In this document: positions 9,121-59,291 of the stretch, one piece after another
Numbering within the stretch: position 1 is the first letter of the stretch
How the letters are laid out: each line of letters begins with the position of its first letter
NCBI GenBank assembly: GCA_045632345.1
Contig: JAZQWM010000008.1
Coordinates: 58,236-122,235, forward strand
DNA: 64,000 nt
Source: Eubacteriales bacterium
GTDB taxonomy: Bacteria > Bacillota > Clostridia > Oscillospirales > CAG-272
Reading direction: 5' to 3'
Made by a program: the position numbers and the translations under genes
The notes under the pieces: model-generated
The model's database searches: none
Seen by the model: the letters and a program-made list of their open reading frames with translations, nothing else
Told to the model about the DNA's origin: nothing

Positions 9121-9213
9121 TGTTATAATGTGTTGTCAAATCTTGCTGACAGCTGTTCACTAAATCAAAAAATATTATTAAGTATTATAAAAGAAAAATT
9201 GATTTAGATTTCG

Positions 9214-9262
9214 GTTTCTTTTTGCTTAGCTTTTTTCTTTTTCTAAAGAAAAAAGTAAGTTA
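9214..9262 (-). repeat. ~50-nt A/T palindromic module abutting a stop codon (copy 1)
   Basis: Minus strand reads TAACTTACTTTTTTCTTTAGAAAAAGAAAAAAGCTAAGCAAAAAGAAAC. Near-identical module at 18938-18986; inverted relative at 22867-22905. Confidence 0.75.
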
Positions 9263-11698: not shown

Positions 11699-12910
11699 TT
11701 ATTTAGTTATAAGATTGCATTTATCTGTATAAAGTGTATCGCCAACGTTAAACGGTGCAACAAGAAGCTGTGGGTGGTTTGGTTGAAGGTCCATTTTACC
11801 GTAATAGTAATCGTGGGTGTGTCCCTTCTTGTATTCAAAGCTAACGTTTTCAAGCGTTACGTTTTCGGCATCAACGATAAGTGATGGGTTTTCCTCAATG
11901 AACTTACTGTCTTTGATTGTTACGTTTTTAATATTACCTGTGGTGTTATCGGAGCAGATTACAAAGCCCTCGCCCTTTCCCCACCATCCGCCGGCGTGGA
12001 TGCGTGTTTCACATTCAATATTGTAAATTTCAACGTTTTCAACAAGTCCATCATCGCCAGAGAAAATTGAAATACCTCTGTTTGAAGGTAAAATCTTAAT
12101 ATCGTGTACCTTAACGTTTCTTACAACTGAGTAAAGGTGTCCAAAACGGATTGCCGCAGAGCGTGAGGACATTAAGCAGTCATAAACCTCCATATTTTCG
12201 CAAACGCCCTCTGTATTTGTGATACAGGTTGCCGCAAAGCAGTCATCTCCACAAAGGAACGTGCAGTTTCTTACAATGATATTCTTTGATGCTGAGAAGT
12301 GTACGCCATCGTTGTTTGCAATTCTATTGTGGTTATCAACGTACATATTCTCAAACACGATGTTTTCACAGTTAGAAAATGTTACTGTCCAGCATGGAGA
12401 GTTGAAAATCTTAAGGTCGTGAATATGTAAATTCTTACAGTTATTAAAGAAAATTGGTTGTGATGGTCTTGTAATCTTTGTTTCAGGTCCAACAACAGTT
12501 TGCTCCTCAAACTCCTTAACCATTTCCTCACGGTTAATTTCGCCTGGGCACCATGCATCAAAGTTTACAAAGGCGTCTCCGTTCATTTGGATTTTACCGC
12601 CGCCGTAAATTTCAATGTTATCGCTATCAAGGGCGTAAATAAGTGAAATTGTCTTTACCATTTCGTTATGGTAAAATTCGTTAGCATAGTAGTGGTCTAA
12701 ATTGCGGGAGCCAACAATTTCTGTGCCCTTTTCAATGTAAACCTTCATATCTCCTTTAAGTCTAAGCGTGCCACAAAGGAAAAAGCCCTTGCCATCAAGC
12801 ACAAGTGTGTCCCCCGCCTCACAAGCGTCAATAGCCGCTTGAATAGCCGCAGTATCAAGAGTGCAGCCATCTCCCTTAGCACCAAAATCTCTTACATTAA
12901 CAAATTTCAT
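11699..12910 (-). CDS. GH28-like right-handed beta-helix glycoside hydrolase (pectate-lyase superfamily)
   Basis: N-terminal VRDFGAKGDGCTLDTAAIQAAIDAC; NNDGVHF and GDDCFA acidic motifs. Confidence 0.7.
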   Translation of the reverse strand: MKFVNVRDFGAKGDGCTLDTAAIQAAIDACEAGDTLVLDGKGFFLCGTLRLKGDMKVYIEKGTEIVGSRNLDHYYANEFYHNEMVKTISLIYALDSDNIEIYGGGKIQMNGDAFVNFDAWCPGEINREEMVKEFEEQTVVGPETKITRPSQPIFFNNCKNLHIHDLKIFNSPCWTVTFSNCENIVFENMYVDNHNRIANNDGVHFSASKNIIVRNCTFLCGDDCFAATCITNTEGVCENMEVYDCLMSSRSAAIRFGHLYSVVRNVKVHDIKILPSNRGISIFSGDDGLVENVEIYNIECETRIHAGGWWGKGEGFVICSDNTTGNIKNVTIKDSKFIEENPSLIVDAENVTLENVSFEYKKGHTHDYYYGKMDLQPNHPQLLVAPFNVGDTLYTDKCNLITK

Positions 12911-14190: not shown

Positions 14191-14221
14191 GCGGTATTTA
14201 CAAAATACCGCCTTTTATTTT
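14191..14221 (+). terminator. Rho-independent terminator
   Basis: GCGGTATTT-ACA-AAATACCGC followed by CTTTTATTTT. Confidence 0.8.
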
Positions 14222-14256
14222 GCACTTTTGCTAAAATAGACCGCTTTATTTTGTAT
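14213..14256. repeat. GCAAAATA/TATTTTGC hairpin repeat locus 1
   Basis: TTTTGCTAAAATAGACCGCTTTATTTTG. Related loci at 16441-16502 and 38135-38197. The downstream ~110 nt (to the RBS) are ~80% identical to 16455-16572. Confidence 0.6.
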
Positions 14257-14322
14257 TTGGTGTTATTTACTTTTGAAAAATAAAATGCTATAATTTATAC
14301 ATAAGGAAAAAGGAGTAATTTA

Positions 14323-15269: not shown

Positions 15270-16208
15270 TTAGTCATAATATTGATTAATTGTAATATGG
15301 AAAATTGGATTTTCAGGAAGTGTACTTCCGTTAAGCTTTTCCTTTGATATTCGTACAAAAAATAAATTGTTTTCTTCTGTGTCGCTTAAAGATGCTCCAA
15401 ACATATCATATGTTAAATGTATAACTGAGCCATCAATATAAAAATCCTTGAAAACCTTAGTGGATGCTTTTTCTTTAATGTCATATCTAAAAACTATTGT
15501 TATGGAGTTATCATTTATCATATAGCTTAGCGAACTACAGCCGAGTTGGCATAGAAAATCTTTAAATTTACTTTCATTGCTAAATAAAAAAGCTTCTTTT
15601 TCCTCAAAGCTTTCAAGATCATTATCGAAATCAAGTAAGCTTTGCGACTCGGAATAATAATTATTTGTTGGATCTAAGTTTAACTCTACGGCAAAAGTGC
15701 CAGATAAATTAGCGCCTTCAAAAACATAGCTTTTTGGAATAATCAAATAAAAGTATGATAAACGCAGTTCGCCAACAAACGCATAACTAACACCGGGTTC
15801 TTCACGCACAATTTTGTTTTCAGATAAAAAGCTCTCTGATTTAACTCCGTTAAAAGCAGAACCGTATTCTCGTATTATTAAAATACAGTTATCGTTAAAT
15901 AATTCCGCATTAACACCGTCGGTTTTATCCACACATGTCGCATATTCCTCATATGTTTTTATGATTTTATATGAGCCTTTTGTTTCTTCTATATCATCAA
16001 GCAAATATGTAGGAGCAGGCGTAACCTTATCAAAATATCTATCGTAAATTTTATTTACAACAACCGTATTTTCAGTAATTTCCTTTTGTGTGTCGCTATC
16101 GGTTGATTGACTATCCGTGTTTGTGTCGGTATCCGTACCGTCAACACTGCAAGCAATGAGAGAAAACGCTAAAATTAGCATAAATAGCGCTAATAAAATT
16201 TTTTTCAT
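15270..16208 (-). CDS. lipoprotein, unknown function, with D/T/S-rich linker
   Basis: Signal peptide with lipobox LIAC, then DGTDTDTNTDSQSTDSDT. Confidence 0.7.
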   Translation of the reverse strand: MKKILLALFMLILAFSLIACSVDGTDTDTNTDSQSTDSDTQKEITENTVVVNKIYDRYFDKVTPAPTYLLDDIEETKGSYKIIKTYEEYATCVDKTDGVNAELFNDNCILIIREYGSAFNGVKSESFLSENKIVREEPGVSYAFVGELRLSYFYLIIPKSYVFEGANLSGTFAVELNLDPTNNYYSESQSLLDFDNDLESFEEKEAFLFSNESKFKDFLCQLGCSSLSYMINDNSITIVFRYDIKEKASTKVFKDFYIDGSVIHLTYDMFGASLSDTEENNLFFVRISKEKLNGSTLPENPIFHITINQYYD

Positions 16209-16440: not shown

Positions 16441-16502
16441 TTTTGCAAAATAGACGCTCTTATTTTACACTTTTTGCTAAAATAACCACCTTTATTTTGC
16501 GC
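16441..16502. repeat. GCAAAATA/TATTTTGC hairpin repeat locus 2
   Basis: TTTTGCAAAATAGACGCTCTTATTTTACAC and TTTTGCTAAAATAACCACCTTTATTTTGC. Confidence 0.6.
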
Positions 16503-16691
16503 TTGGTGCTATTTATTTTTATAAAATAGGATGTTATAATAAATATACAAAGAAATAAGAGGTGCTGATATGACCGCCCGGGAGCGTATTTTAATAATTT
16601 TACTGATAAAAAATAGCAAAATATCAACAGCATTCAGAGAAAATTAGCATTTATATAAAAAATAAAATTTTTAAAAAATCACAAAAAGGGA

Positions 16692-18918: not shown

Positions 18919-18937
18919 ATTTAGCATGTGTTTTTTG

Positions 18938-18986
18938 ATTTCTTTTTTGCTTATCTTTTTTCTTTTTCCAAAGAAAAAAGTAAGTT
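18938..18986 (-). repeat. ~50-nt A/T palindromic module abutting a stop codon (copy 2)
   Basis: Minus strand reads TAACTTACTTTTTTCTTTGGAAAAAGAAAAAAGATAAGCAAAAAAGAAAT. Nearly identical to 9214-9262. Confidence 0.75.
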
Positions 18987-20859
18987 ATTTCGATTGTAGG
19001 TAAATCAAAAGAACGGAAATGTCCGCAGGGGAAACGCCGCTGATACGGGACGCTTGACCTAAGGTTAATGGCTTAACCTTGTTTAGCTTTTGACAGGCTT
19101 CTATGCGAAGTCCCTTAATTTCAGTATAATCAAGGTCGGCAGGAAGAGGTTTTTCCTCTAATTTTTCTGTTCTTGCAACCTCAGCTAACTGTTTTTTTAC
19201 ATAGCCGTCATATTTAATGTCTGTTTGAGCGGTAAAAACTACACTTTGAGGCAAAACAGGGCGGGATGTGTCGAATTTTGCCATATTGTTAAGGTCAATT
19301 TGAGGTCTTTTTATAAGCTCATAAAGAGTCATTCCTGCATAAAGCGGAGTTGTGCCTAATGCTTCAACAACCTCATTTACCTCTTTTGAGGGTTTAATGT
19401 GAACGGTTTTAAGTCTTTCCTTTTCCGCTTCGATTGCTTGTTGCTTTCTTTGATAGTAATCCCATTGCTTGTCGCTTACAAGACCTACACGGCGGCCGAT
19501 AGGAGTTAAACGCTTGTCCGCATTGTCTTGGCGTAGAAGGAGACGGTATTCGCTTCGTGAGGTCATCATTCTGTATGGCTCATTTGTGCCCTTTGTTACA
19601 AGGTCATCAATAAGCGTGCCGATATATGATGATGAGCGTGGTAAAATCATAGGCTCCTCGCCTTTGATTTTTAATACCGCATTGATACCTGCCACAAGAC
19701 CTTGGGCAGCGGCTTCCTCATATCCGGATGTGCCGTTAAACTGTCCTGCGCCGTAAAGACCGCTGATTTTCTTGTATTCAAGGGTGGCAAGAAGCTCTTG
19801 AGGGTCGGTGCAATCATATTCAATAGCGTATGCATAACGCATAATTTTTGCATTTTCAAAGCCTGTAAGAGAGTGTACCATTTTTTCTTGTACATCAATA
19901 GGCATACTTGTTGAAAAGCCTTGTAAGTAAATTTCTTTAGTATTTAAGCCCATAGGCTCAACGAAAAGCTGATGTCTTTCCTTGTCGGCAAAGCGTACGA
20001 TTTTATCCTCAATAGATGGGCAATATCTTGGACCTGTGCCTGTAATATTGCCTGAATACATTGCACTGCGCTTAATATTTGACTTAATAATTTCGTGAGT
20101 ATTTAGGTTTGTATAAACGATATAGCAAGGAATTTGGCTCTTCTTTTGGTATTCGTTTTCATCAGTTTCCCAACAGAAAGGAAGAGTATCGCTTTCTCCC
20201 TCTTGAATTTCAAGCTTGGAATAATCAATACTGTCAGCGTGAATTCTTGCAGGTGTGCCTGTCTTAAAGCGCATAAGATTTATACCCTCACGCTTTAACG
20301 CTTCCGTTAAGAAATTAGCACCGGAAAGTGAGTCAGGACCGCTTTGATAACAAATATTACCTGTGTGAATTGTGGCATTAAGATATGTACCTGTGCAAAT
20401 AATTGCGCACTGTGTCTTATATTCCTCGCCTAAACGGGTAATCACGCTATCAATTTTCTTTATGCCGTCTTCCTCTTTAGTTTTGATGTCAACAATTTCT
20501 GCTTGAATTACACGAAGGTTAGGCGTAGCTTCAAGAGTGGCTTTCATAATGTCGCGGTACTTCATTCTGTCCGCTTGTACTCTCTTTGAGTAAACTGCCG
20601 CACCCTTGCCTAAATTTAACGTTCTTGACTGTAACGTAACGTTGTCTGCGCCTCTGCCCATTTCTCCGCCAAGAGCATCAATTTCATATACTAAATGACC
20701 CTTTGCCGTGCCACCGATTGATGGATTGCAAGGCATATTGGCAATAGCGTCAAGGGACATAGTAAATAGAATGGTGTCCATTCCCATTCTTGCACAAGCA
20801 AGTGCTGCTTCTATTCCTGCGTGGCCTGCGCCTATTACGCATATCTGTGCACTTTTCAT
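18985..20859 (-). CDS. mnmG: tRNA uridine-5-carboxymethylaminomethyl synthesis enzyme MnmG (GidA)
   Basis: FAD motif VIGAGHAGIEAA; 624 aa; full-length GidA-like sequence (GGTAKGHLV, GQINGTSGYEEAAAQG-like). Confidence 0.95.
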   Translation of the reverse strand: MKSAQICVIGAGHAGIEAALACARMGMDTILFTMSLDAIANMPCNPSIGGTAKGHLVYEIDALGGEMGRGADNVTLQSRTLNLGKGAAVYSKRVQADRMKYRDIMKATLEATPNLRVIQAEIVDIKTKEEDGIKKIDSVITRLGEEYKTQCAIICTGTYLNATIHTGNICYQSGPDSLSGANFLTEALKREGINLMRFKTGTPARIHADSIDYSKLEIQEGESDTLPFCWETDENEYQKKSQIPCYIVYTNLNTHEIIKSNIKRSAMYSGNITGTGPRYCPSIEDKIVRFADKERHQLFVEPMGLNTKEIYLQGFSTSMPIDVQEKMVHSLTGFENAKIMRYAYAIEYDCTDPQELLATLEYKKISGLYGAGQFNGTSGYEEAAAQGLVAGINAVLKIKGEEPMILPRSSSYIGTLIDDLVTKGTNEPYRMMTSRSEYRLLLRQDNADKRLTPIGRRVGLVSDKQWDYYQRKQQAIEAEKERLKTVHIKPSKEVNEVVEALGTTPLYAGMTLYELIKRPQIDLNNMAKFDTSRPVLPQSVVFTAQTDIKYDGYVKKQLAEVARTEKLEEKPLPADLDYTEIKGLRIEACQKLNKVKPLTLGQASRISGVSPADISVLLIYLQSK

Positions 20860-23003: not shown

Positions 23004-23047
23004 GTTAGTCTAGCAGCTGATCACTGACCACTGACCACTGATCACTG
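23004..23047. repeat. heptamer-periodic tract
   Basis: GTTAGTC TAGCAGC TGATCAC TGACCAC TGACCAC TGATCAC. Runs into the typA stop codon. Confidence 0.8.
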
Positions 23048-26163: not shown

Positions 26164-26198
26164 AGTGACTAGTGGTCAGTGGTCAGGGGTTAGCTGAC
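26164..26198. repeat. heptamer-periodic tract
   Basis: TAGTGAC TAGTGGT CAGTGGT CAGGGGT TAGCTGA. Confidence 0.75.
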
Positions 26199-26323: not shown

Positions 26324-26358
26324 GCTGATGGCTGGTGGCTGACTGCTGACGGCTAAAG
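26324..26358. repeat. heptamer-periodic tract
   Basis: GCTGATG GCTGGTG GCTGACT GCTGACG GCTAAAG. Confidence 0.75.
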
Positions 26359-28722: not shown

Positions 28723-28758
28723 AGTTTCTCCTTTTTGTTCTCCACAAAAAGGAGAACA

Positions 28759-28932
28759 GTTATAATTGCCGCCAGCAAACTATGATTGCTACGCAAGTTA
28801 TGAAACTTCGTAGCTATGAGCCTTCGGCGTTTATTATTAAATAGGCAATTATATCATAACTTTCGCATTGCGAAATCATAACGCTTGCTTGCAAGCTCAT
28901 AACATTCGCATGGCGAATTCGTAACAAATGCC
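28759..28932. repeat. GTTATGA/TCATAAC hairpin-array element, copy A
   Basis: The left side reads ..GTTATGA-AACTTCGTAGC-TATGA-GCCTTCGGC and the core is ATAATTGCC. The right side has TCATAAC-TTTCGCATTGCGAAA, TCATAAC-GCTTGCTTGCAAGC and TCATAAC-ATTCGCATGGCGAAT, ending TCGTAAC. Confidence 0.85.
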
Positions 28933-29483: not shown

Positions 29484-29508
29484 CTAGCCATCTGACCACT
29501 GACCACTA
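29484..29508. repeat. heptamer-periodic tract
   Basis: TAGCCAT CTGACCA CTGACCA CTATTAA, abutting the rsmG stop. Confidence 0.7.
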
Positions 29509-30231
29509 TTAAAGCGGCTTCTTTGAAATCTGCGAATTATTTCTTGGATACTTAGGTGGAGTGCTTTTTATCTTTCGTATTACTACGATTGATCGTTCAA
29601 TTTCCTCATTTCCGTCGGTAAGTGTGTAGGTAAACACTCTTTCAACCTTACCGCCCAATAAATCTATTGATTTTGTAGCTTCCTCAAGCTCCTCATCGGT
29701 TGAGAGGGATTTCATAGCAAGAAATACGCCGCCCACCTTAACTAACGGAATACAAAGCTCCGAAATTAAATTAAGTCTGCCAACTGCTCTTGCGGTAACA
29801 ACGTCAAAGGATTCTCTTTTGTTACCTTGACCTAAAACCTCAGCTCTTTCGTTTGAGGTTTTTTCGTTTTTAAGACCGAATTTTTGTGCGGTGCTTTCAA
29901 CGTAAGCAACCTTTTTTGATACGCTATCAACTGAAAATACAGACACATCAGGGCGTAAAATGGCAATTACAAGTGATGGAAAGCCACCGCCACAGCCGAT
30001 ATCACAAAGACTTGCATTTTCGGGAATGAACGGCACAACGGCAGAACTGTCAACCAAATGCTTTAAAATAACACCGTCCTCATCCTTAATAGCGGTAAGA
30101 TTTAATGTTTTATTTACCTCAAGCATGTGGCTTGAAAGTGCTTCAAGCTTAGCCGCATTTTCTTCATTTATTAAATTTTTAGTAGCATCGTTTCTGTTTG
30201 CTACGCTTATTAGTTTTTCTACAAATGACAT
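29509..30231 (-). CDS. rsmG: 16S rRNA (guanine527-N7)-methyltransferase RsmG (GidB)
   Basis: SAM motif DIGCGGGFP. Typical 240-aa GidB sequence. Confidence 0.9.
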   Translation of the reverse strand: MSFVEKLISVANRNDATKNLINEENAAKLEALSSHMLEVNKTLNLTAIKDEDGVILKHLVDSSAVVPFIPENASLCDIGCGGGFPSLVIAILRPDVSVFSVDSVSKKVAYVESTAQKFGLKNEKTSNERAEVLGQGNKRESFDVVTARAVGRLNLISELCIPLVKVGGVFLAMKSLSTDEELEEATKSIDLLGGKVERVFTYTLTDGNEEIERSIVVIRKIKSTPPKYPRNNSQISKKPL

Positions 30232-33088: not shown

Positions 33089-33108
33089 ATATTTTCTCCT
33101 ATCTATTA

Positions 33109-33322
33109 GCGAAATTACTTCGCTACAAGTTATGAATTCGCCTTGCGAATGTTATGAGCTTGCATGCAAGCGTTATGAGTTTACTCCGTAAACGTTATGA
33201 TATGATTGCCATAAAGTAACCTTAAACTGTGCCAAGGCACATCATAACAATGCGAATCATTTCATAACGACGCAGTCTCATAGTTTGCCGAAGGCAATCA
33301 TAGTTGCGTAAATTACTTCCGC
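33109..33322. repeat. GTTATGA/TCATAAC hairpin-array element, copy B
   Basis: Four GTTATGA+hairpin units, then core TATGATTGCCATAAAGTAACCTTAAAC + TGTGCCAAGGCACA, then TCATAAC/TCATAG+hairpin units. The right end overlaps the pncB stop. Confidence 0.9.
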
Positions 33323-34758
33323 CCTTGACGAAGTAATTTATGCTTTTCGTCCCATAGTCTTTGTGAAAGGTCAACGTAGTAGTTGTGAGGATTTTCAAAA
33401 CGAAGCACCTCATCCCACATAGAATCAAGCTCGCTTTGACAGTATGCGCGAATTTCTTCAATGGTTGGATTTTCGTAAACACATTCGCCCTTTACAAATA
33501 CAGGAACAAGTAACTCTCTTAACGTGTAATTTTCCATTACCTTACGCTTCCATGTGTGGTCAGGGTCAAAAAGCTCATATGGAGCGTTTTCATCAATTAC
33601 CTCATCATGAATTGTAAGAAGGTCTGCCTCTGCCTTGCCTGTGTCCTTTGAGTAGAAGCGGTATACCTTTTTAAAGTCCGGATTTGTAATCTTTGCAGCA
33701 TTTTCGCTTATCTTGATTTTTGGCTTAATTCCGTTTTTGTCCTCAACTGCGCATAGCTTATATACACCGCCAAAAACAGGCTCACTCCTTGCAGTTATAA
33801 GTCTTTCGCCAACGCCAAACATATCAACCTGTGCGCCTTGTAAAAGAATATCTCTTATAATGTATTCATCAAGTGAGTTGGAAACTACAATCTTACATTT
33901 TGGAAGTCCACTGTTATCAAGTATTTTTCTTATCTTTTTTGTAAGATAGGTAATATCTCCTGAGTCAATACGGATAGCGCAATTTTCTCTTTGCTCCTCG
34001 GTTAGACATTCCTTAAATGCTTTAATAGCATTTGGAAGACCGCTATTTAATACATCATAGGTATCAATTAAAAGCGTTGGGTTGTTTGGATAAAGAGTAC
34101 AGTAGGTTTTAAATGCTTCAAGCTCTGTATCAAACATTTGAATCCAGGAGTGCGCCATTGTGCCGCCTGCCTTTGCGCCAAACATCTTATCGGAAATAGC
34201 GCATGATGTGGAAGCACAACCGCCAATATATGCAGCTCGTGAGCCATAAATTGCAGCATCAGGACCGTGGGCGCGTCTTGCACCGAATTCGGAAACGGGT
34301 CTGCCCTTTGCGGCTCTTACAATTCTTGAAGATTTAGTTGCAACTAAGCTTTGATGATTTACAATCAAAAGCACAAATGTTTCAATAAATTGCGCTTCCA
34401 TAGCAGTTCCGCGAACAGTCATAATAGGCTCATTTGGGAAAATTACAGTTCCTGACGGAACACTCCAAATGTCGCCTCTAAATTTAAAGTCCTTTAGGTA
34501 GGCTAAAAACTCCTCATCAAAAATTCCCTTTGAACGAAGATATTCAATATCATCATTCTCAAACTTAATTGATTTAATATACTCAATAATTTGTTCAAGA
34601 CCGCAGAAAATAGCATAACCGCCATTGTCCGGCACCTTTCTAAAAAATACATCAAAGTATGCAATCTTGTCCTTAATTTCAGAGTGGAAATATCCACGAG
34701 CCATTGTAAGCTCATAAAAGTCGCATAAAAGCGTTAGCTTTCTTTCATCAATTTTCAT
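33313..34758 (-). CDS. pncB: nicotinate phosphoribosyltransferase
   Basis: 481 aa. N-terminal LTLLCDFYELTMA and GTMAHSWIQ motifs are typical of PncB. Confidence 0.9.
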   Translation of the reverse strand: MKIDERKLTLLCDFYELTMARGYFHSEIKDKIAYFDVFFRKVPDNGGYAIFCGLEQIIEYIKSIKFENDDIEYLRSKGIFDEEFLAYLKDFKFRGDIWSVPSGTVIFPNEPIMTVRGTAMEAQFIETFVLLIVNHQSLVATKSSRIVRAAKGRPVSEFGARRAHGPDAAIYGSRAAYIGGCASTSCAISDKMFGAKAGGTMAHSWIQMFDTELEAFKTYCTLYPNNPTLLIDTYDVLNSGLPNAIKAFKECLTEEQRENCAIRIDSGDITYLTKKIRKILDNSGLPKCKIVVSNSLDEYIIRDILLQGAQVDMFGVGERLITARSEPVFGGVYKLCAVEDKNGIKPKIKISENAAKITNPDFKKVYRFYSKDTGKAEADLLTIHDEVIDENAPYELFDPDHTWKRKVMENYTLRELLVPVFVKGECVYENPTIEEIRAYCQSELDSMWDEVLRFENPHNYYVDLSQRLWDEKHKLLRQGRK

Positions 34759-34875: not shown

Positions 34876-34935
34876 GTTAGGGGATAGGGACAGGGGATAG
34901 GGGTTCGCTACGCTCACAGGGTGGATACCTATCGC
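34876..34935. repeat. G-rich heptamer tract plus conserved core TTCGCTACGCTCACAGGG
   Basis: TTAGGGG ATAGGGA CAGGGGA TAGGGGT TCGCTAC GCTCACA GGG. A 29-nt exact match to 38994-39022. Confidence 0.85.
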
Positions 34936-36283: not shown

Positions 36284-36330
36284 CGCTAACCGCTAACCGC
36301 TAACAGCTGACCGCTGTGAGCGAAGCGAAC
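36284..36330. repeat. heptamer tract plus inverted copy of the conserved core
   Basis: CGCTAAC x3, AGCTGAC, then CTGTGAGCGAAGCGAAC (reverse complement of a GTTCGCTTCGCTCACAG core). Abuts the stop at 36331. Confidence 0.8.
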
Positions 36331-37977: not shown

Positions 37978-38134
37978 TTTTATCTCCTTGTACTTTTTGT
38001 ACATTGTAATATATATTAGTATGTTTTTCAAGCAACCTGAGGTTGCATTTTGCTAACCGTAGGTTTACAAACACTTGTTTTTTTACTACTGTAATAATTA
38101 TACCACACTATTTTTGGAAAATAAATATCAAAAA

Positions 38135-38197
38135 GTGCAAAATAAATGTGTCTATTTTGCAAAAAATGCAAAATAAAGCGCTCTATTTTGCAAAATA
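38135..38197. repeat. GCAAAATA/TATTTTGC hairpin repeat locus 3
   Basis: Two tandem hairpins, GCAAAATA-AATGTGTC-TATTTTGC and TGCAAAATA-AAGCGCTC-TATTTTGCA. Confidence 0.7.
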
Positions 38198-38692: not shown

Positions 38693-38953
38693 CTATTTTT
38701 TTGTGAAAAATGAGAAAATTCCCTTTTTCTCTATTTCCTTTTCGGTTACGTCAAGTAACTTAAAGCCAAGAGCGGTAATTGTCTTTTCAAGAGCTGTTCT
38801 TTCGATTTTATTTTTAGATGTAATTACAGTTGTGCCGTTTTCGTGTGAGGAAACCACCTTTTTTACGTTAAAGCCACTCTTGATAGTCTCTGTAACTTGA
38901 CTTTCACAGTGTGGGCACATCATTCCTTGAATTTTTAAAGTTGTTTCTATCAT
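38693..38953 (-). CDS. heavy-metal-associated (HMA) domain protein
   Basis: GMMCPHC metal-binding motif in a beta-alpha-beta-beta-alpha-beta sized domain. Confidence 0.75.
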   Translation of the reverse strand: MIETTLKIQGMMCPHCESQVTETIKSGFNVKKVVSSHENGTTVITSKNKIERTALEKTITALGFKLLDVTEKEIEKKGIFSFFTKK

Positions 38954-38976
38954 AATAAACTCCTTTCAGTCGTATT

Positions 38977-39069
38977 TTAGGGGATAGGGTATAGGGGATA
39001 GGGGTTCGCTACGCTCACAGGGGTGGTTAGTTATTCCCTGTTCCCTGTCCCTTGTCCTCTGACCCCTGC
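38977..39069. repeat. heptamer-tract inverted arms (GGGGATA-type vs CCCTGTT-type) around the conserved core
   Basis: TTAGGGG ATAGGGT ATAGGGG ATAGGGG TTCGCTA CGCTCAC AGGGGTG GTTAGTT ATTCCCT GTTCCCT GTCCCTT GTCCTCT GACCCCT. Confidence 0.85.
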
Positions 39070-39801
39070 TTAAAGCTTTGGCTCAAAGCAAGGCATAAGC
39101 TCTAATTTGAATAGGTTATTTTTATGCTTTCTATCAATGATTTCCTTTTTATTAAGGTCATCAATTTCGCCTGTGCGGATGTATCTGTCAAGCTCTGCAT
39201 AGGTAAAGCCGAGGTTTTCCTCATCGCTCTTTCCGCAAAGACCGTCAATAGGTGTCTTTTCAACAAGATTATAGGGCAATTTTAAGAGGTGGCCGATTTC
39301 CTTGACCTCTGTTACGGTTAATCTTGAAAGGGGGCTAAAATCGCCTACTGAATCGCCGTAGCGTGTTGAGTAGCCTACCCAGTCCTCAGAGAGATTGCAG
39401 GTATTTGCAACTCTGCCGTTGCAGCTTTGTGAAATTGCATAAACTGTTGACATACGAATACGCGGTGGGAGATTTTGAATAGATTGAGCTGTAATTTCAA
39501 GCTCCTTGGGCATGTTTTTTATAATTCCGTCAACGGCGTCCTTGATGTTTACAACGTAGTGCTTAATGCCCAAGTGATTTACAAGCTGATATGACGCGTC
39601 AATATCGTGCTGCTCTCCCTGTGGCATTAAAACGCCTATTACTCTGTCCTTGCCTAGAGCCTCAACACAAAGCGCCGCCACAACTGAGCTGTCCTTTCCG
39701 CCTGAAACACCTAAAACAGCGTTACAGCCCTTGCCGTTTTGCTCAAAAAAATCTCTTATCCACTCAACACATTCGTTTTTAATTTTTTCTGCGTTAAACA
39801 T
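39070..39801 (-). CDS. nadE: NH3-dependent NAD+ synthetase
   Basis: PP-loop GVSGGKDSS. 243 aa. Confidence 0.9.
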   Translation of the reverse strand: MFNAEKIKNECVEWIRDFFEQNGKGCNAVLGVSGGKDSSVVAALCVEALGKDRVIGVLMPQGEQHDIDASYQLVNHLGIKHYVVNIKDAVDGIIKNMPKELEITAQSIQNLPPRIRMSTVYAISQSCNGRVANTCNLSEDWVGYSTRYGDSVGDFSPLSRLTVTEVKEIGHLLKLPYNLVEKTPIDGLCGKSDEENLGFTYAELDRYIRTGEIDDLNKKEIIDRKHKNNLFKLELMPCFEPKL

Positions 39802-48818: not shown

Positions 48819-48852
48819 AATAAACCGTCCTTATTTGTCCGTAGTCATACTC

Positions 48853-48881
48853 AGTATAGCACTATATTATAATATTGTCAA
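48853..48881 (-). promoter_or_regulatory. sigma-70-type promoter for the GH38 gene
   Basis: Minus strand reads TTGACA, 17 nt, TATACT. Confidence 0.65.
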
Positions 48882-48902
48882 CAAAATTAAAAGGGATAGA
48901 TT

Positions 48903-49086
48903 TTAGCGTGATGTCCTTAACGGACAAATCACGCTAAGTTATGATTGCCCTTGCGGGCAAGTTATGAGTTATGAAATGCTACGCATTGTTATGATTGGCT
49001 TCGCCAAGTTTAAGATTGGATGGGCAATCATATCATAACGTTTGCGTAGCAAACTCATAACGGCGAGCAAAGCGAGCCTCATAACT
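48903..49086. repeat. GTTATGA/TCATAAC hairpin-array element, copy C (core inverted relative to B and D)
   Basis: Starts with the nested hairpin TTAGCGTGAT..ATCACGCTAA. Then four GTTATGA units, core GTTTAAGATTGGATGGGCAATCATA, and three TCATAAC units. Confidence 0.9.
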
Positions 49087-49100
49087 CTAAATGAAAACCA

Positions 49101-49153
49101 ACAGAAAAAGAGCAGACATACAAGATTTAGTCTTGCATGTCTGCTCTTTCTGT
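49101..49153 (-). terminator. long hairpin, terminator-like
   Basis: ACAGAAAAAGAGCAGACATACAAGA / TCTTGCATGTCTGCTCTTTCTGT, a stem of over 20 bp. Confidence 0.5.
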
Positions 49154-49271
49154 TTGTAATAAGGGTTTGGGCTTAGCCCATTTATAATTTGATTGGTCAA
49201 ATACGATGCTCGCACTTAACGGCGGTTTTCAAATTCTCCGCTAAGAACATCATCCTTTCTATCCCTTTTCG

Positions 49272-51119
49272 TTAGTTATTCGGAAGTGCAGATGTTTTGT
49301 AGTCCTCGGCTATAATTACGTTATCAATGAAAAACGCTGTGTTGATGAACGATGCGTTTAGAACAGAGCCATAGAAGTAGAAGCCTGTAATAAGAGTGTC
49401 CTCTTTTGGGAAGATTCTATCTTGAAGCATATCTTCTATTGCAAATGCAAAATATCCCTTTTTGCCTTGAACTGAGCTTGCACCGCCATCGCCCTTACCA
49501 AAGCAGCCGTCATAGCCGAAGGAAAGAGCTTCCCATTCTGTTGAGCCGTCTGCAAGATAGTAGAAGCTTGAGTATGAGCCGTTATTATCGTCAGATCTAT
49601 ATGGAAATTCAGCGCCTGCTGTGGACGTGAAGCCCACAGATGCTTTTCTAATCTCTACCTCTGTAAAGTCCATCCAAACGATAATATATTTGTTGTTTCC
49701 GACCTTGCCGTAGGTGTCAAGATCTATTGCAAACTCAAATGCACCCTCGCTTCCCCCAAGGCTTGTGGAAATGTAAAGTCCCTTTGAGCCGTTTACTCCC
49801 ACTTTTTTAGCAGGCTCGGCAAGAACGTTTGCGGTAAGCTCCTTGTTATCCCAGCCGGAAATTACAATATCGTTAATTCCGCTTTCAAAGTCTTCAAGAA
49901 CAGTACCGCTTTGGAAAGCATCGTAATCATTTGGGTTTGGTCTTTCAACAAGGTATTCAACGTAGGTAGGAACGTTATCTGTTTTTGATGCATTTAAGTC
50001 AAGGACTCTTGAGCCTTGAATAGACGTTGAGTAATAGGTTAAATCACTTAGGTTAGGAGATGCTATAAGCTTAACTCCCTTATAATTTATCGCATAGTCA
50101 TTTATGTGGTCATGGCCTGTAACGATAGCTTTAACGTTGCCAAGTTCAAGAATTGTTTCAAAAAGATTTGTATCAACCTCTGACGGATGCGCGCTTTCGT
50201 TAAAGCCCCCGGTAAATTCATAAACGACCTCAGGATTGTTTACGTTTTTGTATGCATCTCTATTTTCAATAAGAGGAATGTGGAACGCCATAATGCCGTT
50301 AACGTGTTCACCGTTATTGTATTCCTTAATAAGAAGTGAGGTTTCCTTGTACCAATCAATTTGGTCCTGCTTAATAAAATCGTAGTAGCTTGAATATTGT
50401 GTTTGGTCTGCGTATGCGCCTGAGTCAAGAAGCCAGATAAGAGAGCCTAAGCTACCGTCTCTGTTATAAACGCCGTGAACGTAGGTGCCTGTACCGCTTA
50501 ATTCCGTTACGTCCTTTGAAATGCAATATTCGTAGGACTCATAAATTGCTTGCTGTTTTTCATGGTCAAGAGCGTTTTCGTGGTCGTGGTTGCCGTAAAC
50601 GTGGCACCAAGGAATTTGCTTTTCCTCAATATAGCTTACAATAGCGTTTAAGTTTTTGCGTAGGCTTACCTCGTAAATTGAATTTATGGTGTTATCTCCT
50701 GTTAAAATTACAAGGTTAGGTTGAATTTGGTCAACCATCTGTTTAATTCTAATCTTTACTCTTTCAACGCTGGCAGAGCTTGCATTTACGTTCATGTGAG
50801 CGTCGGCAATAATCATAACTCTGAATGAGCCGTCCTTGTTGTATTCAAGACGGTGCTTGCTTTCAAGTAACGCTTCAGCCTGAGAAATAATTTCCTCGCT
50901 TGCATTACTTTGCCATGGCTCAATTATAACGTCCTCTTCCTCTGGAATATCGGTGTCTGTGTCGCTATTTACGCTGCTATCCTCGTTTTCGCTGTCGCTT
51001 GACGTGTCGCCTTCAATGCTTGAATCGGTATCTGTGTCGGTATTTTCGCCACATGCAACCAATGAACAAATCAACAAAGCTAAAAGAGCAAGGATAACTA
51101 ATAATTTAATTGCTTTCAT
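49272..51119 (-). CDS. lipoprotein metallophosphoesterase (calcineurin-like) with C-terminal beta-rich domain, paralog 1
   Basis: Lipobox LVAC; D/T/S linker; motifs IIADAHMN, TGDN, GNHDHE, FHIP, GHDH. Confidence 0.8.
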   Translation of the reverse strand: MKAIKLLVILALLALLICSLVACGENTDTDTDSSIEGDTSSDSENEDSSVNSDTDTDIPEEEDVIIEPWQSNASEEIISQAEALLESKHRLEYNKDGSFRVMIIADAHMNVNASSASVERVKIRIKQMVDQIQPNLVILTGDNTINSIYEVSLRKNLNAIVSYIEEKQIPWCHVYGNHDHENALDHEKQQAIYESYEYCISKDVTELSGTGTYVHGVYNRDGSLGSLIWLLDSGAYADQTQYSSYYDFIKQDQIDWYKETSLLIKEYNNGEHVNGIMAFHIPLIENRDAYKNVNNPEVVYEFTGGFNESAHPSEVDTNLFETILELGNVKAIVTGHDHINDYAINYKGVKLIASPNLSDLTYYSTSIQGSRVLDLNASKTDNVPTYVEYLVERPNPNDYDAFQSGTVLEDFESGINDIVISGWDNKELTANVLAEPAKKVGVNGSKGLYISTSLGGSEGAFEFAIDLDTYGKVGNNKYIIVWMDFTEVEIRKASVGFTSTAGAEFPYRSDDNNGSYSSFYYLADGSTEWEALSFGYDGCFGKGDGGASSVQGKKGYFAFAIEDMLQDRIFPKEDTLITGFYFYGSVLNASFINTAFFIDNVIIAEDYKTSALPNN

Positions 51120-51161
51120 GTTTTCTCCCTTAAATATTCCTTTTTATTCGTAATCATATTT

Positions 51162-51190
51162 AGTATATCATTATGTTATAATAAAGTCAA
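51162..51190 (-). promoter_or_regulatory. sigma-70-type promoter
   Basis: Minus strand reads TTGACT, 17 nt, TATACT. Preceded by the terminator hairpin GGGGATAG/CTATCCC of the upstream gene. Confidence 0.65.
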
Positions 51191-51228
51191 CAAAATTAAA
51201 GGGATAGAATACCTATCCCCTTTAATGT

Positions 51229-53205
51229 TTATTCAGTTGGAAGGGATGCTGCTTGATAATTTTCAACAAGCATTACGTTATCAATATAGAATGGCTTGTT
51301 AAGGTATGCTTCTCCCCACCAAAGTGAAGCGTAGAAGTATAAGCCTGTGATAACTGTATTTTCATTCATTCTATTGTTTCCTTGACGTAAATCGTCAATA
51401 GGAAATGCGAAATATCCCTTTAAGCCGTTTACTGAGCCCTCTTGCTCTCTGCCGAAGCAACCATCTGAGCCATGGGCAAGCTCCTTCCATTCCTTAGTGC
51501 CGTCTGCAAGATAGTAGAATTTAGGGGAAGCGCCATCAAGGTCATCTGTTCTAAACGGATTTTCGTATCCGTCAGTTGTTGTAAGACCGATACATGCCTT
51601 TCTAAAATCAATCTGTGTTAAATCCATCCAGAAAATAACGTACTGGTTGTTTCCAACCTTACCTGCGCTCGAAATATCAATTACAAACTCAAAGTTTCCT
51701 GTGTTATCACGAATAACCTCAAGACCAACTGAGCCGCCTGTACCCTTGCCGTCAACGGCGGTAATTGTAGCAGTTCCTGCCATAGGGTTACTAGCCCAGC
51801 CTGAAACAACAGGATCTGCAAATTCGCCTTCAAAGTCCTCTAAAACAATATCCTTGCCAAGGTCCTCGAAATCATCGGGATTTACTCTTTCAATTACGTA
51901 TTCAACGTACGTTGGAATATTGTTAAGAGTTGACGTATTTAAGTCAAATACTCTTGAGCCTTGGAACGTTACGTTATAATACGTAAGGTCGCTAAGGTTA
52001 GGAGAGGACGTAAGCTTAACGCCCTTATAGTTAAACATATAGTCGTTTACGTGGTCGTGTCCTGTAACGATTGCCTTAACGTCGCCAAGCTCAAGGATAG
52101 TTTCAAGAAGATTTGTGTCAACCTCGGATGGACACATAGCCTCATTAACACCGCCGGACGCATCTAAAACGATTTCAGAATTGTTTACGTTCTTTTGTGC
52201 ATCTCTGTTTTCAATTAGCGGAATATGGAACGCCATCATACCCTTAACGGTAACGCCGTTATTGTATTCCTTAATAAGAAGTGATGATTCCTTATACCAG
52301 TTAATTTGGTCCTCTTTAATAAAGTCGTAGTAGCCCGGGTATCCTGAGGCTACGTATGAGCCTGAGTCAATTAGCCAAATAAGAGAGCCAAGGCTTCCGT
52401 CCTTGTTGTAAACGCCGTGCACATACGTACCTGTGCCGCTTAATTCTGTAACGTCCTTTGAAATGCAGTATTCAAATGACTCATAAATTTCTTGCTGCTT
52501 AGCGTGGCTTAACGCGTTTTCATGGTCATGGTTACCGTACACGTGGCACCAAGGAATTTGCTTTTCCTCAATGTAGCCAACAATAGCTGAAATATCATCG
52601 CGAAGCTTTGATTCGGTGTTGGCGTTAATAGTGTTATCGCCTGTTAAAATAACTAAGTTAGGTTGAATTTTATCAACCATCATTTTAACTCTGTCCTTAA
52701 CCTCTTGTACGTCAACCTCGTTGCCTAATGCGTTCATGTGTGCATCGGCAATAATCATAACTCTGAATGAGCCGTCCTCGTTATATTCAAGACGGTGCTT
52801 GCTTTTAAGTAACGCTTCAGCCTGAGAAATAACGTCTGCGCTTGCATTGCTTTGCCATATCTCGTTTGTGTCATCTGAGCCATCGTCTGCTACGTCGCTA
52901 TCGGTATCGCTGTCGGTAGGCTCACTGTCAGTTGTGATTTCACTATCCGTATTAGTTTCGGTATCAGTATCACTTGAAATATCGCTATCTGTGTCTGTAA
53001 TTTGGTCTGTATCTGTGTCAGTATCGCTTAAAATGTCGCTGTCTGTGTCGCTATTTACGCTTGTGTCCTTAATTTCGCTATCAATTTGAGTGTCGTTTTC
53101 CGCGGTTGAGTTTGTATCTGTGTCGGTGCTTTCCCCACACGCAACCATGGTAAAAATCAATAAAAGCGAAAGAGCAAGTAAAGCTAATAATTTAATTGCT
53201 TTCAT
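51229..53205 (-). CDS. lipoprotein metallophosphoesterase, paralog 2
   Basis: Lipobox MVAC, a longer D/T/S linker and the same phosphoesterase motifs. The catalytic domain aligns by eye with paralog 1 at roughly three-quarters identity. Confidence 0.8.
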   Translation of the reverse strand: MKAIKLLALLALSLLLIFTMVACGESTDTDTNSTAENDTQIDSEIKDTSVNSDTDSDILSDTDTDTDQITDTDSDISSDTDTETNTDSEITTDSEPTDSDTDSDVADDGSDDTNEIWQSNASADVISQAEALLKSKHRLEYNEDGSFRVMIIADAHMNALGNEVDVQEVKDRVKMMVDKIQPNLVILTGDNTINANTESKLRDDISAIVGYIEEKQIPWCHVYGNHDHENALSHAKQQEIYESFEYCISKDVTELSGTGTYVHGVYNKDGSLGSLIWLIDSGSYVASGYPGYYDFIKEDQINWYKESSLLIKEYNNGVTVKGMMAFHIPLIENRDAQKNVNNSEIVLDASGGVNEAMCPSEVDTNLLETILELGDVKAIVTGHDHVNDYMFNYKGVKLTSSPNLSDLTYYNVTFQGSRVFDLNTSTLNNIPTYVEYVIERVNPDDFEDLGKDIVLEDFEGEFADPVVSGWASNPMAGTATITAVDGKGTGGSVGLEVIRDNTGNFEFVIDISSAGKVGNNQYVIFWMDLTQIDFRKACIGLTTTDGYENPFRTDDLDGASPKFYYLADGTKEWKELAHGSDGCFGREQEGSVNGLKGYFAFPIDDLRQGNNRMNENTVITGLYFYASLWWGEAYLNKPFYIDNVMLVENYQAASLPTE

Positions 53206-56600: not shown

Positions 56601-57378
56601 ATTCGATTATCTCCTTTGCGAGATTTTTGTATTCTAATGCGCTTCTTGAATATTTTTTGTAAGCAACAACAGGCTTACTGTTGTCCTGAGACCATTCAAC
56701 GGCGCTATCAACCTTAACGTAAGCGTTGAAAACTCTTATGTCCTCTGTTGCTTTTAGAGTTTCAAGCGTTTCCTTAAAGTATTTCTTTCTTTCGTCAGCC
56801 TTTGTTATCATAATACCCATAACGTTAAGGCGTGGAGAAATTTCGCTTACCTTACTTATGAAGTCAAACATGTTTGCAAGACCGAAAAGTCCCCAAGGGC
56901 TAGCCTCAACGGGAATTACAACGAAGTCCGATGCGCACATGATGTTCATTACCCAGCCGCCAAGTGTCGGTGGGGAATCTATTAAAATATAGTCGTAGTA
57001 GCCACGGGCGCGAATTGGCTCTAAGCACTTTTTGAGAATGAATTCCCTTTGCCACTTTGGGAATAAATCAAACTCAATAGCGCTCATAAGTGAGGTTGAC
57101 GGAATAATATCCAGTCCCTCATACTCCGTAGCCACTACGAAATCCGAAAGGTCCTTTTCTTCCTTTATTGCGGTGTATATATTCTTTCCGTTGCTTGCGT
57201 AGTCAAGTGATTTTTCTTCATCAAAAAAGGAAAGAGTTAAGTTAAGCTGCATGTCTCCGTCTATTAAAAGCACCTTTTTGCCCATTAACGAAAGTGCGCA
57301 GCCTATATTTGAGCAGGAAGTGGTTTTACCGCTGCCGCCCTTGTTATTTGCAAATGCAATTACCTTAGTTTTGCTCAT
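56587..57378 (-). CDS. ParA/MinD-family deviant Walker-A ATPase
   Basis: KGGSGKTT with the signature lysine; DSPP (Walker B region). 263 aa. The start overlaps the eutP/pduV stop by 14 nt. Confidence 0.85.
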   Translation of the reverse strand: MSKTKVIAFANNKGGSGKTTSCSNIGCALSLMGKKVLLIDGDMQLNLTLSFFDEEKSLDYASNGKNIYTAIKEEKDLSDFVVATEYEGLDIIPSTSLMSAIEFDLFPKWQREFILKKCLEPIRARGYYDYILIDSPPTLGGWVMNIMCASDFVVIPVEASPWGLFGLANMFDFISKVSEISPRLNVMGIMITKADERKKYFKETLETLKATEDIRVFNAYVKVDSAVEWSQDNSKPVVAYKKYSRSALEYKNLAKEIIEYANR

Positions 57379-57841: not shown

Positions 57842-58200
57842 TACGTTCTTGTAATTTCACAGCAAACGTATTTGAGTCTTTGTGTGAAATATTCTCTGAT
57901 TGCGGTAAATGCTGACTCAACGCTTGAAACGCTACCTGAAATAATAAGCGTTCCTGTAAATCTGTCAACGAAGCCGATATCAGCTCCCGATGATTTAATT
58001 GAAATATCCGCCGCAATAACTGCGCTCTCCGCAGGGGAAACGGTTAAAACACCGATTGCGCTTTTTGTGTAGTCGGTCTTTGGGTCAAGACCAAGCTTTG
58101 TGTAAAGCACGTTATCAGGATTTGCAATTATATGTGAAAGAGTTATCTGCTTACCAGGTACTAACTCCTGCACTATTCTCATGTTTTCTTTAAGCTCCAT
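57841..58200 (-). CDS. eutS: EutS/PduU-type (circularly permuted) BMC shell protein
   Basis: RIVQELVPGKQITLSHIIANP...AIGVLTVSPAESAVIAADISIK is typical of EutS/PduU. Start at 58200 behind GGAGG. Confidence 0.8.
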   Translation of the reverse strand: MELKENMRIVQELVPGKQITLSHIIANPDNVLYTKLGLDPKTDYTKSAIGVLTVSPAESAVIAADISIKSSGADIGFVDRFTGTLIISGSVSSVESAFTAIREYFTQRLKYVCCEITRT

Positions 58201-58202
58201 TT

Positions 58203-59288: not shown

Positions 59289-59291
59289 CGC

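Follow-up and report, generated by a model that had tools for sequence, protein, structure and literature searches.

A tagged hairpin-array repeat of foldback type in uncultured gut and rumen Clostridia

The 64-kb window analyzed here (contig JAZQWM010000008.1 of an uncultured Eubacteriales bacterium, positions 58,236 to 122,235) holds four copies, A to D, of a small intergenic element in which a heptamer tag, GTTATGA or its reverse complement TCATAAC, alternates with perfect mini-hairpins in two opposed arms around an asymmetric core. The family is an undescribed small repeat; by type it is a foldback-like mobile repeat that resembles the REP and BIME elements of E. coli and lacks the GTAG tag and the alternating order by which these are defined. 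The reading we prefer, to which we assign a probability of roughly 0.55, is that of a non-autonomous, dispersed, foldback-type repeat of about 160-400 bp that is carried by uncultured gut and rumen Clostridia and is mobilized via recognition of its folded strand.

Exact GTTATGA/TCATAAC heptamers occur 36 times in the window, against 8.7 ± 3.2 in dinucleotide shuffles (maximum 17; none of 100 shuffles reaches 36). Two-thirds of them, 24, lie inside the four loci (A 4, B 6, C 7, and D 7), in good agreement with the first-pass annotation, which had counted 24 there against about 8 expected by chance in the whole window, and the remaining 12 are scattered across 63 kb at the chance rate. A profile hidden Markov model (HMM) built from 14 family members has exactly four matches in the window, scoring 147 bits for C, 116 for B, 100 for D, and 64 for A. 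Pairwise identity is 75% over 178 bp between A and B, 78.5% over 163 bp between B and D, and 83% over 98 bp between B and C, which, as judged by sequence, identifies the four loci as paralogues of one family. The copies had originally been placed at 28759-28932, 33109-33322, 48903-49086, and 59008-59288; all four are retained, but the last of these stretches comprises two arrays, the left one (59007-59111) being differently tagged.

Every copy is intergenic and every neighboring gene lies on the minus strand. Copy A occupies the 5′ untranslated region (UTR) of a citrate synthase gene, downstream of a conserved promoter. Copy B stands between the NAPRTase and YmdB genes, where it fills the spacer from the stop codon to the ribosome-binding site (RBS). 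Copy C is located between metallophosphoesterase and GH38 genes, after an intrinsic terminator and before a promoter, and copy D between a glycyl-radical enzyme gene (pyruvate formate-lyase-like, PFL-like) and the gene for its activase, again in the spacer between stop codon and RBS. With canonical orientation set by the core, two copies are sense and two antisense to these genes: each scores far more strongly on one strand in the profile HMM, B and D on the plus strand and A and C on the minus strand. The strand-specific scores thus agree with the earlier observation that the core is inverted in A and C relative to B and D, so that the element is not locked to one orientation.

The rules by which a unit is built emerge from 74 distinct inter-heptamer segments, taken from the window and the other family loci and read on the TCATAAC strand. 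Of the 74, 60 form a perfect stem of 4 bp or more (mean 4.8 and maximum 12 for shuffled segments), and the hairpin spans the entire segment between tags (median coverage 1.0). The loops are strongly polar, being G..A in 39 units and T..C in 1; GAA (13), GTA (9), GCA (5), and GGA (3) are joined by GNNA tetraloops, and the closing pair is C:G in 59 of 64. Loops of the GNA type closed by C:G, first noticed on one side of the element, are therefore the rule, with a polarity that flips between the arms. In a unit, the heptamer tag is followed by a stem of 3-7 base pairs that vary and by a C-G(N)NA-G apex that does not; together they give a polar unit with a perfect hairpin of 11-19 nt. Since the hairpin segments between tags vary from 9 to 23 nt, and units from about 16 to 30 nt (mostly 20-25), the proposed unit length of 21-22 nt, or three heptamers, is not a real period.

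The order of the tags is equally strict. Within every element, GTTATGA stands on the left and TCATAAC on the right, whichever strand is read, giving strings of forward (F) and then reverse (R) tags such as FFFFRRR; units repeat directly within each arm, and inversion occurs only from one arm to the other. Going outward from the core, on the strand that runs 5′ to 3′ toward each end, both arms read tag and then GNA-loop hairpin. The two inverted arms had been recognized from the opposite placement of the two heptamers. The outermost tags are usually the variant TCATAGT; TCTAAAC, TTTAAAC, CTTAAAC, and TGATAAC are further variants. Each arm has 2-4 units. In canonical orientation, the element begins with a heptamer run, GTTTTA-GTTTAGA, followed by 2-4 GTTATGA-hairpin units. 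The core then reads GTTATGA-TATGAT[T/C]GCC(C), 8-11 nt, CTTAAAC, and a hairpin, and the 3′ part has 2-4 TCATAAC-hairpin units, T[T/C]GCC-loop-GGC[A/G]A-TCATAGTT, and a longer hairpin of variable sequence. The conserved core described previously is indeed shared, though its spacer is 8-11 rather than 9-10 nt and the core of copy A is degenerate (TATAATTGCC, without CTTAAAC). In the canonical orientation only, "TATGA + arm" of the core is a perfect 10-12-nt complement of "arm + TCATA" at the 3′ end. This arm differs by subfamily (TTGCCC, GTTCCGC, or TCGCC), and because the complementary sequence changes along with it, core and 3′ end covary. A description of the element as one simple long palindrome was dropped, as the mirrored hairpins are unlike in sequence.

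Covariation was measured for three local hairpins in a 14-copy alignment (A3). These positions are 92% paired, with two-sided changes in 10 of 16 pairs (36 cells), and none of 500 shuffles matches the observed pairing or the covariation score. Sliding the partner by 1-3 columns lowers pairing to 24-48%, and one-sided cells of the G:U type number only 2 of 205. The stems are thus shown to be maintained almost purely by Watson-Crick replacement, which agrees with the initial view that the hairpin structure is conserved and its sequence is not.

Distribution, gain, and loss of the element

A contig scan of one genome per species for three tags spaced 9-18 nt apart returned at least 119 loci. Among the matches listed, 44 (within L003-L117 of our numbered loci) are pure tandem (GTTATGA)3-19 arrays from Bacteroidetes, Cyanobacteria, and a few other phyla, the same phyla for which TAACTGA arrays have been reported (PMC4679880); these tandem arrays are unrelated to the hairpin family. 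True members make up at least about 25 loci, all in metagenome-assembled genomes (MAGs) of uncultured rumen or gut Clostridia (RUG "Ruminococcus", RGIG Clostridia, and Eubacteriales). The expectation that a wider pattern search would yield further copies was borne out in these other genomes, while the host genome itself was sampled as the single 64-kb window, with a density of 4 copies in 64 kb. A search of the window for other clusters of hairpins with G..A/T..C loops found only C and D and showed no excess beyond the four loci. In about 10 of the roughly 25 loci, the element adjoins a scaffold gap or the end of a contig, three being broken inside the array, as expected of multicopy repeats; the arrays probably fragment metagenome assemblies of these organisms.

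The family had not been recognized from sequence in the first pass, and the databases agree. Rfam at gathering thresholds reports only a tRNA (276-360) in the window, assigning no array copy to an RNA family, and the E-value mode on B, D, and C gives only subthreshold, generic hairpin matches. No match was obtained by blastn of C with its adjoining block against plasmids or of B against phages. The three-tag pattern has at least 117 matches in IMG/VR viral contigs, none with hairpins between the tags among the matches listed, and we found no description of this family in the searchable literature. An exact-match look-up of the YmdB protein of the window gave no record.

Several composites, 315-400 bp long, end sharply against flanks that are unrelated from locus to locus. 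Loci L006, L013, and L086 hold a composite 80-90% identical to copy C plus its terminator and a further conserved block (48902 to about 49295); the genes beside it in these loci are without homology to those of the window. A 315-bp unit comprising a long hairpin, arrays, and a tail with a terminator is near-identical in L017, L020, and L030, both flanks being unrelated, and partial copies of it on two contigs of one MAG (L001 and L099) have differing upstream flanks.

Orthologous sites can be filled or empty. The contig L317 is collinear with 27-49 kb of the window (YmdB 82% identical) and has no array in its 20.8 kb: at the B site, NAPRTase and YmdB are separated by a 57-bp spacer with no element; at the C site, a 25-bp spacer between metallophosphoesterase and GH38 replaces C and its block; and upstream of citrate synthase, where A would lie, the start codon directly follows the conserved promoter. 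In L318 (YmdB 84%), an orthologous copy of B has kept its tags, with new sequences in most stems and a duplication of one unit. L322 (YmdB 79%) has a short orthologous copy of A, with one left hairpin and two right units, as well as a full D-like copy in a NadE spacer; the window (38953-39070) and L317 have no element there. In more than 12 metagenomic relatives with activases 74-87% identical, the D site consists of a 10-60-bp spacer without an element. Finally, L030 lacks exactly one 31-nt unit, with direct repeats at its borders. Comparison of these loci shows gain or loss of whole elements, together with growth and shrinkage by units. The first-pass annotation had proposed a mobilized repeat, which fixed orthologous copies in all relatives would have contradicted. 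Presence/absence differences are instead seen in L317, L318, L322, and the D-site relatives, and the empty and filled sites, the recurrence of one composite between unrelated flanks, and the copies in other genomes support the proposal.

Folded DNA, RNA, and other explanations

We propose that a trans-acting protein would recognize the tag and apex of the folded single strand; such recognition would explain why only copies with intact tags and hairpins persist and spread, and the strict grammar of tag, stem, and apex implies a specific recognizing protein. Among related genomes, whole elements are seen to be present or absent in a given spacer, and single units are gained, duplicated, or lost at the tags, with tags and apex remaining fixed. 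For the host, any effect is likely incidental: a stable hairpin block in 5′ UTRs or between cistrons may buffer mRNA decay or read-through. The consequence is that a stable structure of 150-400 bp, sometimes with terminators, is put into 5′ UTRs and operon spacers, one such site separating a glycyl-radical enzyme from its activase.

Between folded DNA and RNA as the recognized form, we lean somewhat toward DNA; an incidental or exapted RNA effect of the element is plausible. The C-GNA-G motif is characteristic of DNA mini-hairpins of the d(GCGAAGC) type, which are unusually stable. This apex, the near absence of G:U pairs, the independence from the direction of transcription, the position of C outside a transcription unit, and the inverted polarity of the arms, which is the usual geometry of transposon ends, all favor DNA. 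Single copies fold far better than shuffles either way (z = -6.6 as DNA and -5.9 as RNA). An independent RNAalifold run recovered the same hairpins and added a ladder of tag-tag helices, first left tag with last right tag and last left tag with first right tag; being invariant, these helices are neither supported nor rejected by covariation.

A number of observations weigh against our preferred reading. The tag-tag ladder fits RNA better than DNA, and so does the outer variant TCATAGT, which pairs with GTTATGA only via G:U. No candidate enzyme came to light: Pfam identifies no transposase, HUH nuclease, or recombinase among about 48 open reading frames (ORFs) of the window, and phmmer with IS200 TnpA, IS608 TnpA, and E. 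coli RAYT (approximate query sequences) retrieves none from the six-frame ORFs of the window and L001-L199, about 0.9 Mb of related loci, the sole match being weak and in an unrelated Bacteroidetes locus. A Y1 HUH transposase (RAYT/IS200-like) flanked by the units, for which the first-pass annotation had suggested a search, was thus not found in these sequences. All-against-all clustering of the ORFs around arrays likewise reveals no recurring family except generic XRE-type helix-turn-helix (HTH) regulators. No target-site duplication can be defined, the nearest empty sites (L317 and the D-site relatives) being too diverged across the junction, and the 10-nt direct repeat AAATTACTTC that flanks B is missing from the orthologous copy in L318. 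At single sites, the difference may reflect loss instead of gain, as the relatives share 74-87% protein identity and are not strains; the empty A site of L317 may be a deletion, since the start of the gene differs there too. Near-identity between MAGs could come partly from misbinning.

Many of the same observations bear on the possibility that the element is a cis-acting RNA module selected by the host, whose hairpins and tags stabilize or insulate mRNA or serve as a platform for an RNA-binding protein. A post-transcriptional role has been proposed for heptamer repeats such as TAACTGA (MacGregor 2015, PMC4679880). Copy A within a 5′ UTR downstream of a conserved promoter and copies B and D between stop codon and RBS are placed as such a module would be, and the D site of six relatives (L123, L124, L126, L134, L136, and L137) has independently gained other hairpin arrays or heptamer runs. 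The strong RNA folding, the hairpin covariation, the presence of GNRA-type tetraloops, and the G:U-compatible outer tag variant fit as well. Nevertheless, we consider this explanation unlikely. Two of the four copies are antisense, and their transcripts would carry the wrong strand of the asymmetric core and of its 3′ complement; C lies between an intrinsic terminator and the next promoter; G:U is nearly absent from the stems, and C:G-closed triloops predominate; close relatives lack the element at the same sites; and no Rfam family matches.

An origin in place is quite unlikely in our estimation. By this account, the clade expands heptamer microsatellites in its spacers, between whose tags mini-hairpins form through duplication and palindrome-forming template switching, so that similar arrays arise again and again. 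In its favor, heptamer microsatellites, at least eight in number, lie in spacers of the window and belong to families that recur in relatives; tags without an intervening hairpin stand next to each other (GTTATGAGTTATGA), and heptamer runs occur at element ends; arrays with other tags (ACTTCAT, AATTCAC, and AATTCAT) follow the same loop polarity; orthologous copies of A vary in unit number, L318 has its duplicated unit, and pure (GTTATGA)n arrays exist in other phyla. What such birth does not explain is that hairpin order, the asymmetric core, and its 3′ complement are common to copies across sites and genomes, which points to copying of whole elements, and that the 315-400-bp composites are sharply bordered by unrelated flanks.

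A broader idea, which we regard as a long shot, is that GTTATGA arrays, arrays with other tags, and plain microsatellites are products of one enzyme system that writes or copies 7-nt tags and C-GNA-G mini-hairpins into intergenic DNA via a single-stranded intermediate. If true, it would link REP-like hairpin repeats mechanistically to the STRR/TAACTGA heptamers of Cyanobacteria, Beggiatoaceae, and Bacteroidetes.

It is very improbable that the element is an array of duplex binding sites for a heptamer-recognizing protein, akin to iterons, centromere-like sites, or nucleoid-protein sites. Invariant heptamers, three or four per arm and inverted around a core, would suit such a protein, but the tag spacing of about 16 to 30 bp gives no helical phasing, a duplex-binding protein has no need for self-complementary segments with an asymmetric apex between tags, and no partner gene recurs; iteron- and centromere-like sites were dropped because the spacing is unphased and the spacers are constrained palindromes. 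A multicopy gene for a structured noncoding RNA, for instance a CsrB-style protein sponge, is comparably remote: many hairpins with a constant single-stranded motif between them, and the terminators and other conserved hairpin blocks that adjoin C and the L017-type copies, recall such genes, but there is no conserved promoter (homology begins at the element border), copies lie in both orientations relative to genes and inside operons, and Rfam has no match.

The individual copies and neighboring repeats

Copy A (28753-28932, canonical on the minus strand) has three left hairpins, the degenerate core, and three or four right units, followed by a hairpin, GTTCTCC/GGAGAAC, and the RBS. Copy B is canonical on the plus strand. 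The flanking hairpin TAGCGAA-ATTAC-TTCGCTA (33107-33125) lies on the 5′ side in the canonical orientation, immediately upstream (antisense) of the YmdB RBS. The left arm (33129-33200) has four GTTATGA tags (33129, 33151, 33172, and 33194) with three perfect hairpins between them (stems ATTCGC/GCGAAT, GCTTGC/GCAAGC, and GTTTAC/GTAAAC). The core (33201-33241) consists of TATGATTGCC, 10 nt, CTTAAAC, and hairpin R0 (TGTGCC/GGCACA); the reverse complement of TATGATTGCC, GGCAATCATA, lies at 33293-33302. In the right arm (33242-33304), TCATAAC at 33242 and 33262 and TCATAGT at 33278 and 33298 accompany the hairpins AATGC-GAA-TCATT, GAC-GCA-GTC, and TTGCC-GAA-GGCAA. A long terminal hairpin, AAATTACTTC...GAAGTAATTT (33310-33339, plus strand), which has the 10-mer AAATTACTTC in common with the flanking hairpin, overlaps the end of the NAPRTase gene, namely its final nine codons and stop codon (KLLRQGRK*). 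This hairpin is a perfect 10 bp in the window and in L318 and intermediate in L322, whereas L317, which is without element B, encodes the same NAPRTase C-terminal peptide with synonymous codons that do not pair.

Copy C (48903-49097, canonical on the minus strand) has tags at 48938, 48961, 48968, and 48988 on the plus strand and at 49033, 49055, and 49079 on the minus strand, with its core at 49008-49032 and its long terminal hairpin at 48903-48937. The block that travels with it (49098-49295, minus strand) contains the terminator hairpin (49105-49151), a GGGCTTAGCCC hairpin (49168-49180), and conserved sequence as far as about 49295. The conserved portion upstream of the terminator, about 135 nt (49161-49295, minus strand), starts with GATGTTCTTAGCGGAGAATTT, has several small hairpins, and is common to four genomes (the window, L006, L013, and L086) with unrelated neighbors. 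It has no conserved ORF and no Rfam match and could be a small RNA or a piece of a larger mobile unit; a small peptide was considered and dropped, as the reading frame is not kept across L006, L013, and the window. Nearby, tandem metallophosphoesterase paralogues (49272-51119 and 51229-53205) share 72% DNA identity, and the promoter-like region upstream of GH38, just beyond C (48828-48900), is an 84% copy of the spacer between these paralogues (51138-51208). In L317, GH38 begins 25 bp after the upstream gene, without promoter or terminator.

Copy D (59101-59288, canonical on the plus strand) has tags at 59112, 59134, and 59158 on the plus strand and at 59207, 59223, 59243, and 59263 on the minus strand, with its core at 59165-59191. 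Its terminal hairpin, GGCGAAG/CTTCGCC (59271-59285), is 3 nt from the upstream stop codon. In the second, abutting array (59007-59111, plus strand), the tag ACTTCAT(TTG), a class also present in L089, L123, and L322, alternates with small hairpins (GCGAC/GTCGC, AGGC/GCCT, TCC-GTA-GGA, and TGC-GAA-GCA). The PFL-like enzyme beside D is part of a glycyl-radical-enzyme microcompartment locus (57365-63711) that includes EutP/PduV (57365-57841), a bacterial microcompartment (BMC) shell protein (61844-62389), and an RnfC/Nuo51-like protein (62392-63711).

The heptamer microsatellites of the window (23017-23047, 26171-26190, 26324-26354, 29492-29507, 34878-34903, 36284-36315, 38978-39004, and 39034-39052) lie in short spacers beside gene ends, with 2-5 copies each of heptamers such as CTGACCA/AGTGGTC, GCTGATG, TAGGGGA, CGCTAAC, and TTCCCTG. 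The same heptamer families occur at other sites in the relatives L319, L322, and L323, sometimes as two inverted arms, as at the B site of L322 and L323. At the D site upstream of the activase, L136, L137, and L123 have (CTTTCAA)n or (ATGCAGA)n runs or an AATTCAC-tagged hairpin array, and other spacers of L322 hold an ATGAATT(G)-tagged hairpin array and a (YAGCSGT)3 run (12531-12751 and 15798-15860). These microsatellites resemble the STRR/TAACTGA phenomenon, here in a Clostridia genome, and their co-occurrence with the arrays offers a handle on the origin of bacterial heptamer repeats.

Other repeats share the window. A dispersed module at 34877-34921 and 38977-39022 (96% identical) consists of (TAGGGGA)n followed by a hairpin, GTTCGC-TAC-GCTCAC. 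After the CGCTAAC run, at 36310-36330, comes a hairpin of this type, which has tandem G.A/A.G mismatches (GNGAGC-GNA-GCGANC); C-type elements also contain it as a unit (GGCGAGC-AAA-GCGAGCC). Several MAGs have, in or close to the elements, insertions of a short repeat of a different family, GGGGTTCCCC...GGGGGTTC...: L013 (about 6540-6590), L030 (about 20-110), and L322 (about 6300-6420). In the window, a second dispersed repeat of about 100-120 bp (75-82% identity) occurs at 14197-14315, 16441-16561, and 38080-38195, two of its copies falling within low-GC sequence (14-18 kb). A 55-bp direct repeat (91%) at 9209-9262 and 18933-18987 brackets a 9.7-kb segment with a G+C content of 0.26-0.37 and mixed gene orientation, encoding a BspA-type leucine-rich repeat (LRR) protein, Fic, HTH regulators, and unknowns. 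The 55-bp repeats could be the two ends of an integrated element; Pfam identifies no integrase for the segment. At about 9-19 kb, the GC skew changes from positive to negative and gene orientation from plus to minus, converging. No Bacillus-type dif site is present near this switch within 8 mismatches of the Bacillus-derived consensus, and gidA (18985-20859) and gidB (29509-30231) lie to its right.

Comparison with known systems

Two candidate classes were rejected outright. Integron attC sites have RYYYAAC ... GTTRRRY around one imperfect palindrome of 50-140 nt and come with cassettes and IntI; here, TCATAAC does not fit RYYYAAC, the order is GTT... and then ...AAC, the palindromes lie between tags of the same orientation, and Pfam identifies no integrase. 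In CRISPR arrays, the constant part is a repeat of 24-48 bp, set between unique spacers of similar length; here it is 7 nt, the variable parts are self-complementary, and Pfam scans of the window reveal no cas genes.

The ends of IS200/IS605 elements, and their derivatives without genes (PATEs), likewise have small subterminal hairpins near a short conserved motif for cleavage or targeting and no long inverted repeats, and the single-stranded DNA chemistry of IS200/IS605 is a proposed likeness. In those elements, which have a Y1 transposase (TnpA) and insert 3′ of a fixed tetra- or pentanucleotide, there is one hairpin per end and both lie on the same strand, whereas the present element has arrays whose polarity flips between the arms (G..A 39 versus T..C 1), and neither TnpA nor TnpB was found nearby.

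The tandem TAACTGA heptamers of Beggiatoaceae, Cyanobacteria, and Bacteroidetes, whose function is not established (MacGregor 2015, PMC4679880), and the cyanobacterial STRR heptamers share with our family a 7-nt unit and a place in intergenic DNA. Read in shifted phase, (TCATAAC)n is TAACTCA, one base from TAACTGA, which may be a lead toward a common origin and is not evidence of relationship. TAACTGA and STRR repeats are contiguous, mostly oriented toward a start codon, and without interleaved hairpins, two arms, or a core, whereas the tags here are 9-23 nt apart, with adjacent pairs only occasional (48961/48968).

BOX of Streptococcus pneumoniae and the neisserial intergenic mosaic elements (NIME; dRS3 + RS) are modular intergenic mosaics with strong predicted structure, with modules of 45 bp (boxB) or 50-150 bp (RS); to our knowledge, no dedicated transposase is known for either. 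They resemble the present family in their variable module number and in the alternation of a constant short motif with variable segments; by description, mini-hairpin modules, a heptamer tag, and the GNA apex rule are particular to the latter.

Miniature inverted-repeat transposable elements (MITEs) and foldback elements, with arms of short subrepeats, resemble the present family in being small and noncoding, with architecturally inverted arms, intergenic insertion polymorphism, and internal subrepeats that let length vary. Long terminal inverted repeats, as in MITEs, are absent: only the 7-nt tags are inverted, and the ends read GTTTTAGTTTAGAGTTATGA... and ...GGCAATCATAGTT. The loci examined contain no parent insertion sequence or related transposase, and no target-site duplication can be defined. 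In contrast to both, every subrepeat here folds into a hairpin of its own, maintained by compensatory change.

The REP/RAYT-like or IS200/IS605-like attribution of the first-pass annotation is not supported. A REP is a palindrome of 20-40 bp that ends in GTAG, or in CGTC in the second superfamily (Di Nocera et al. 2013, PMC3733652). The heptamer tag TCATAAC precedes its hairpin and includes neither motif; the hairpins are much smaller (11-19 nt) and perfect, with the C-GNA-G apex; within an arm the units are direct repeats and do not alternate as they do in BIMEs, the polarity flip falling between the arms; every unit of an element has its own stem; and the replicating unit is the whole 160-400-bp composite with its asymmetric core. 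The hosts are Clostridia, and no RAYT or other Y1/HUH protein was found in the window and L001-L199. REPs of Firmicutes are reported in neither this survey nor the RAYT/REP survey of Quentin et al. (2018, PMC6006769); the term Firmicutes is absent from both texts, and Clostridia appear only under IS200-type subclass 1.1. The likenesses to REP, BIME, and REPIN are nonetheless extensive: short extragenic palindromes with a constant tag at one end, composite mosaics that hold units of both orientations, variable stem sequences with the hairpin kept, and a high copy number that varies between related genomes, seen here as four copies in 64 kb and as empty and filled sites. Recognition of folded single-stranded DNA, as we propose here, is the accepted model for REPs. 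Dispersed palindromic repeats have been well studied in Proteobacteria, as REP with RAYT; the elements described here would be a widespread family of this general kind in uncultured ruminant and gut Clostridia.

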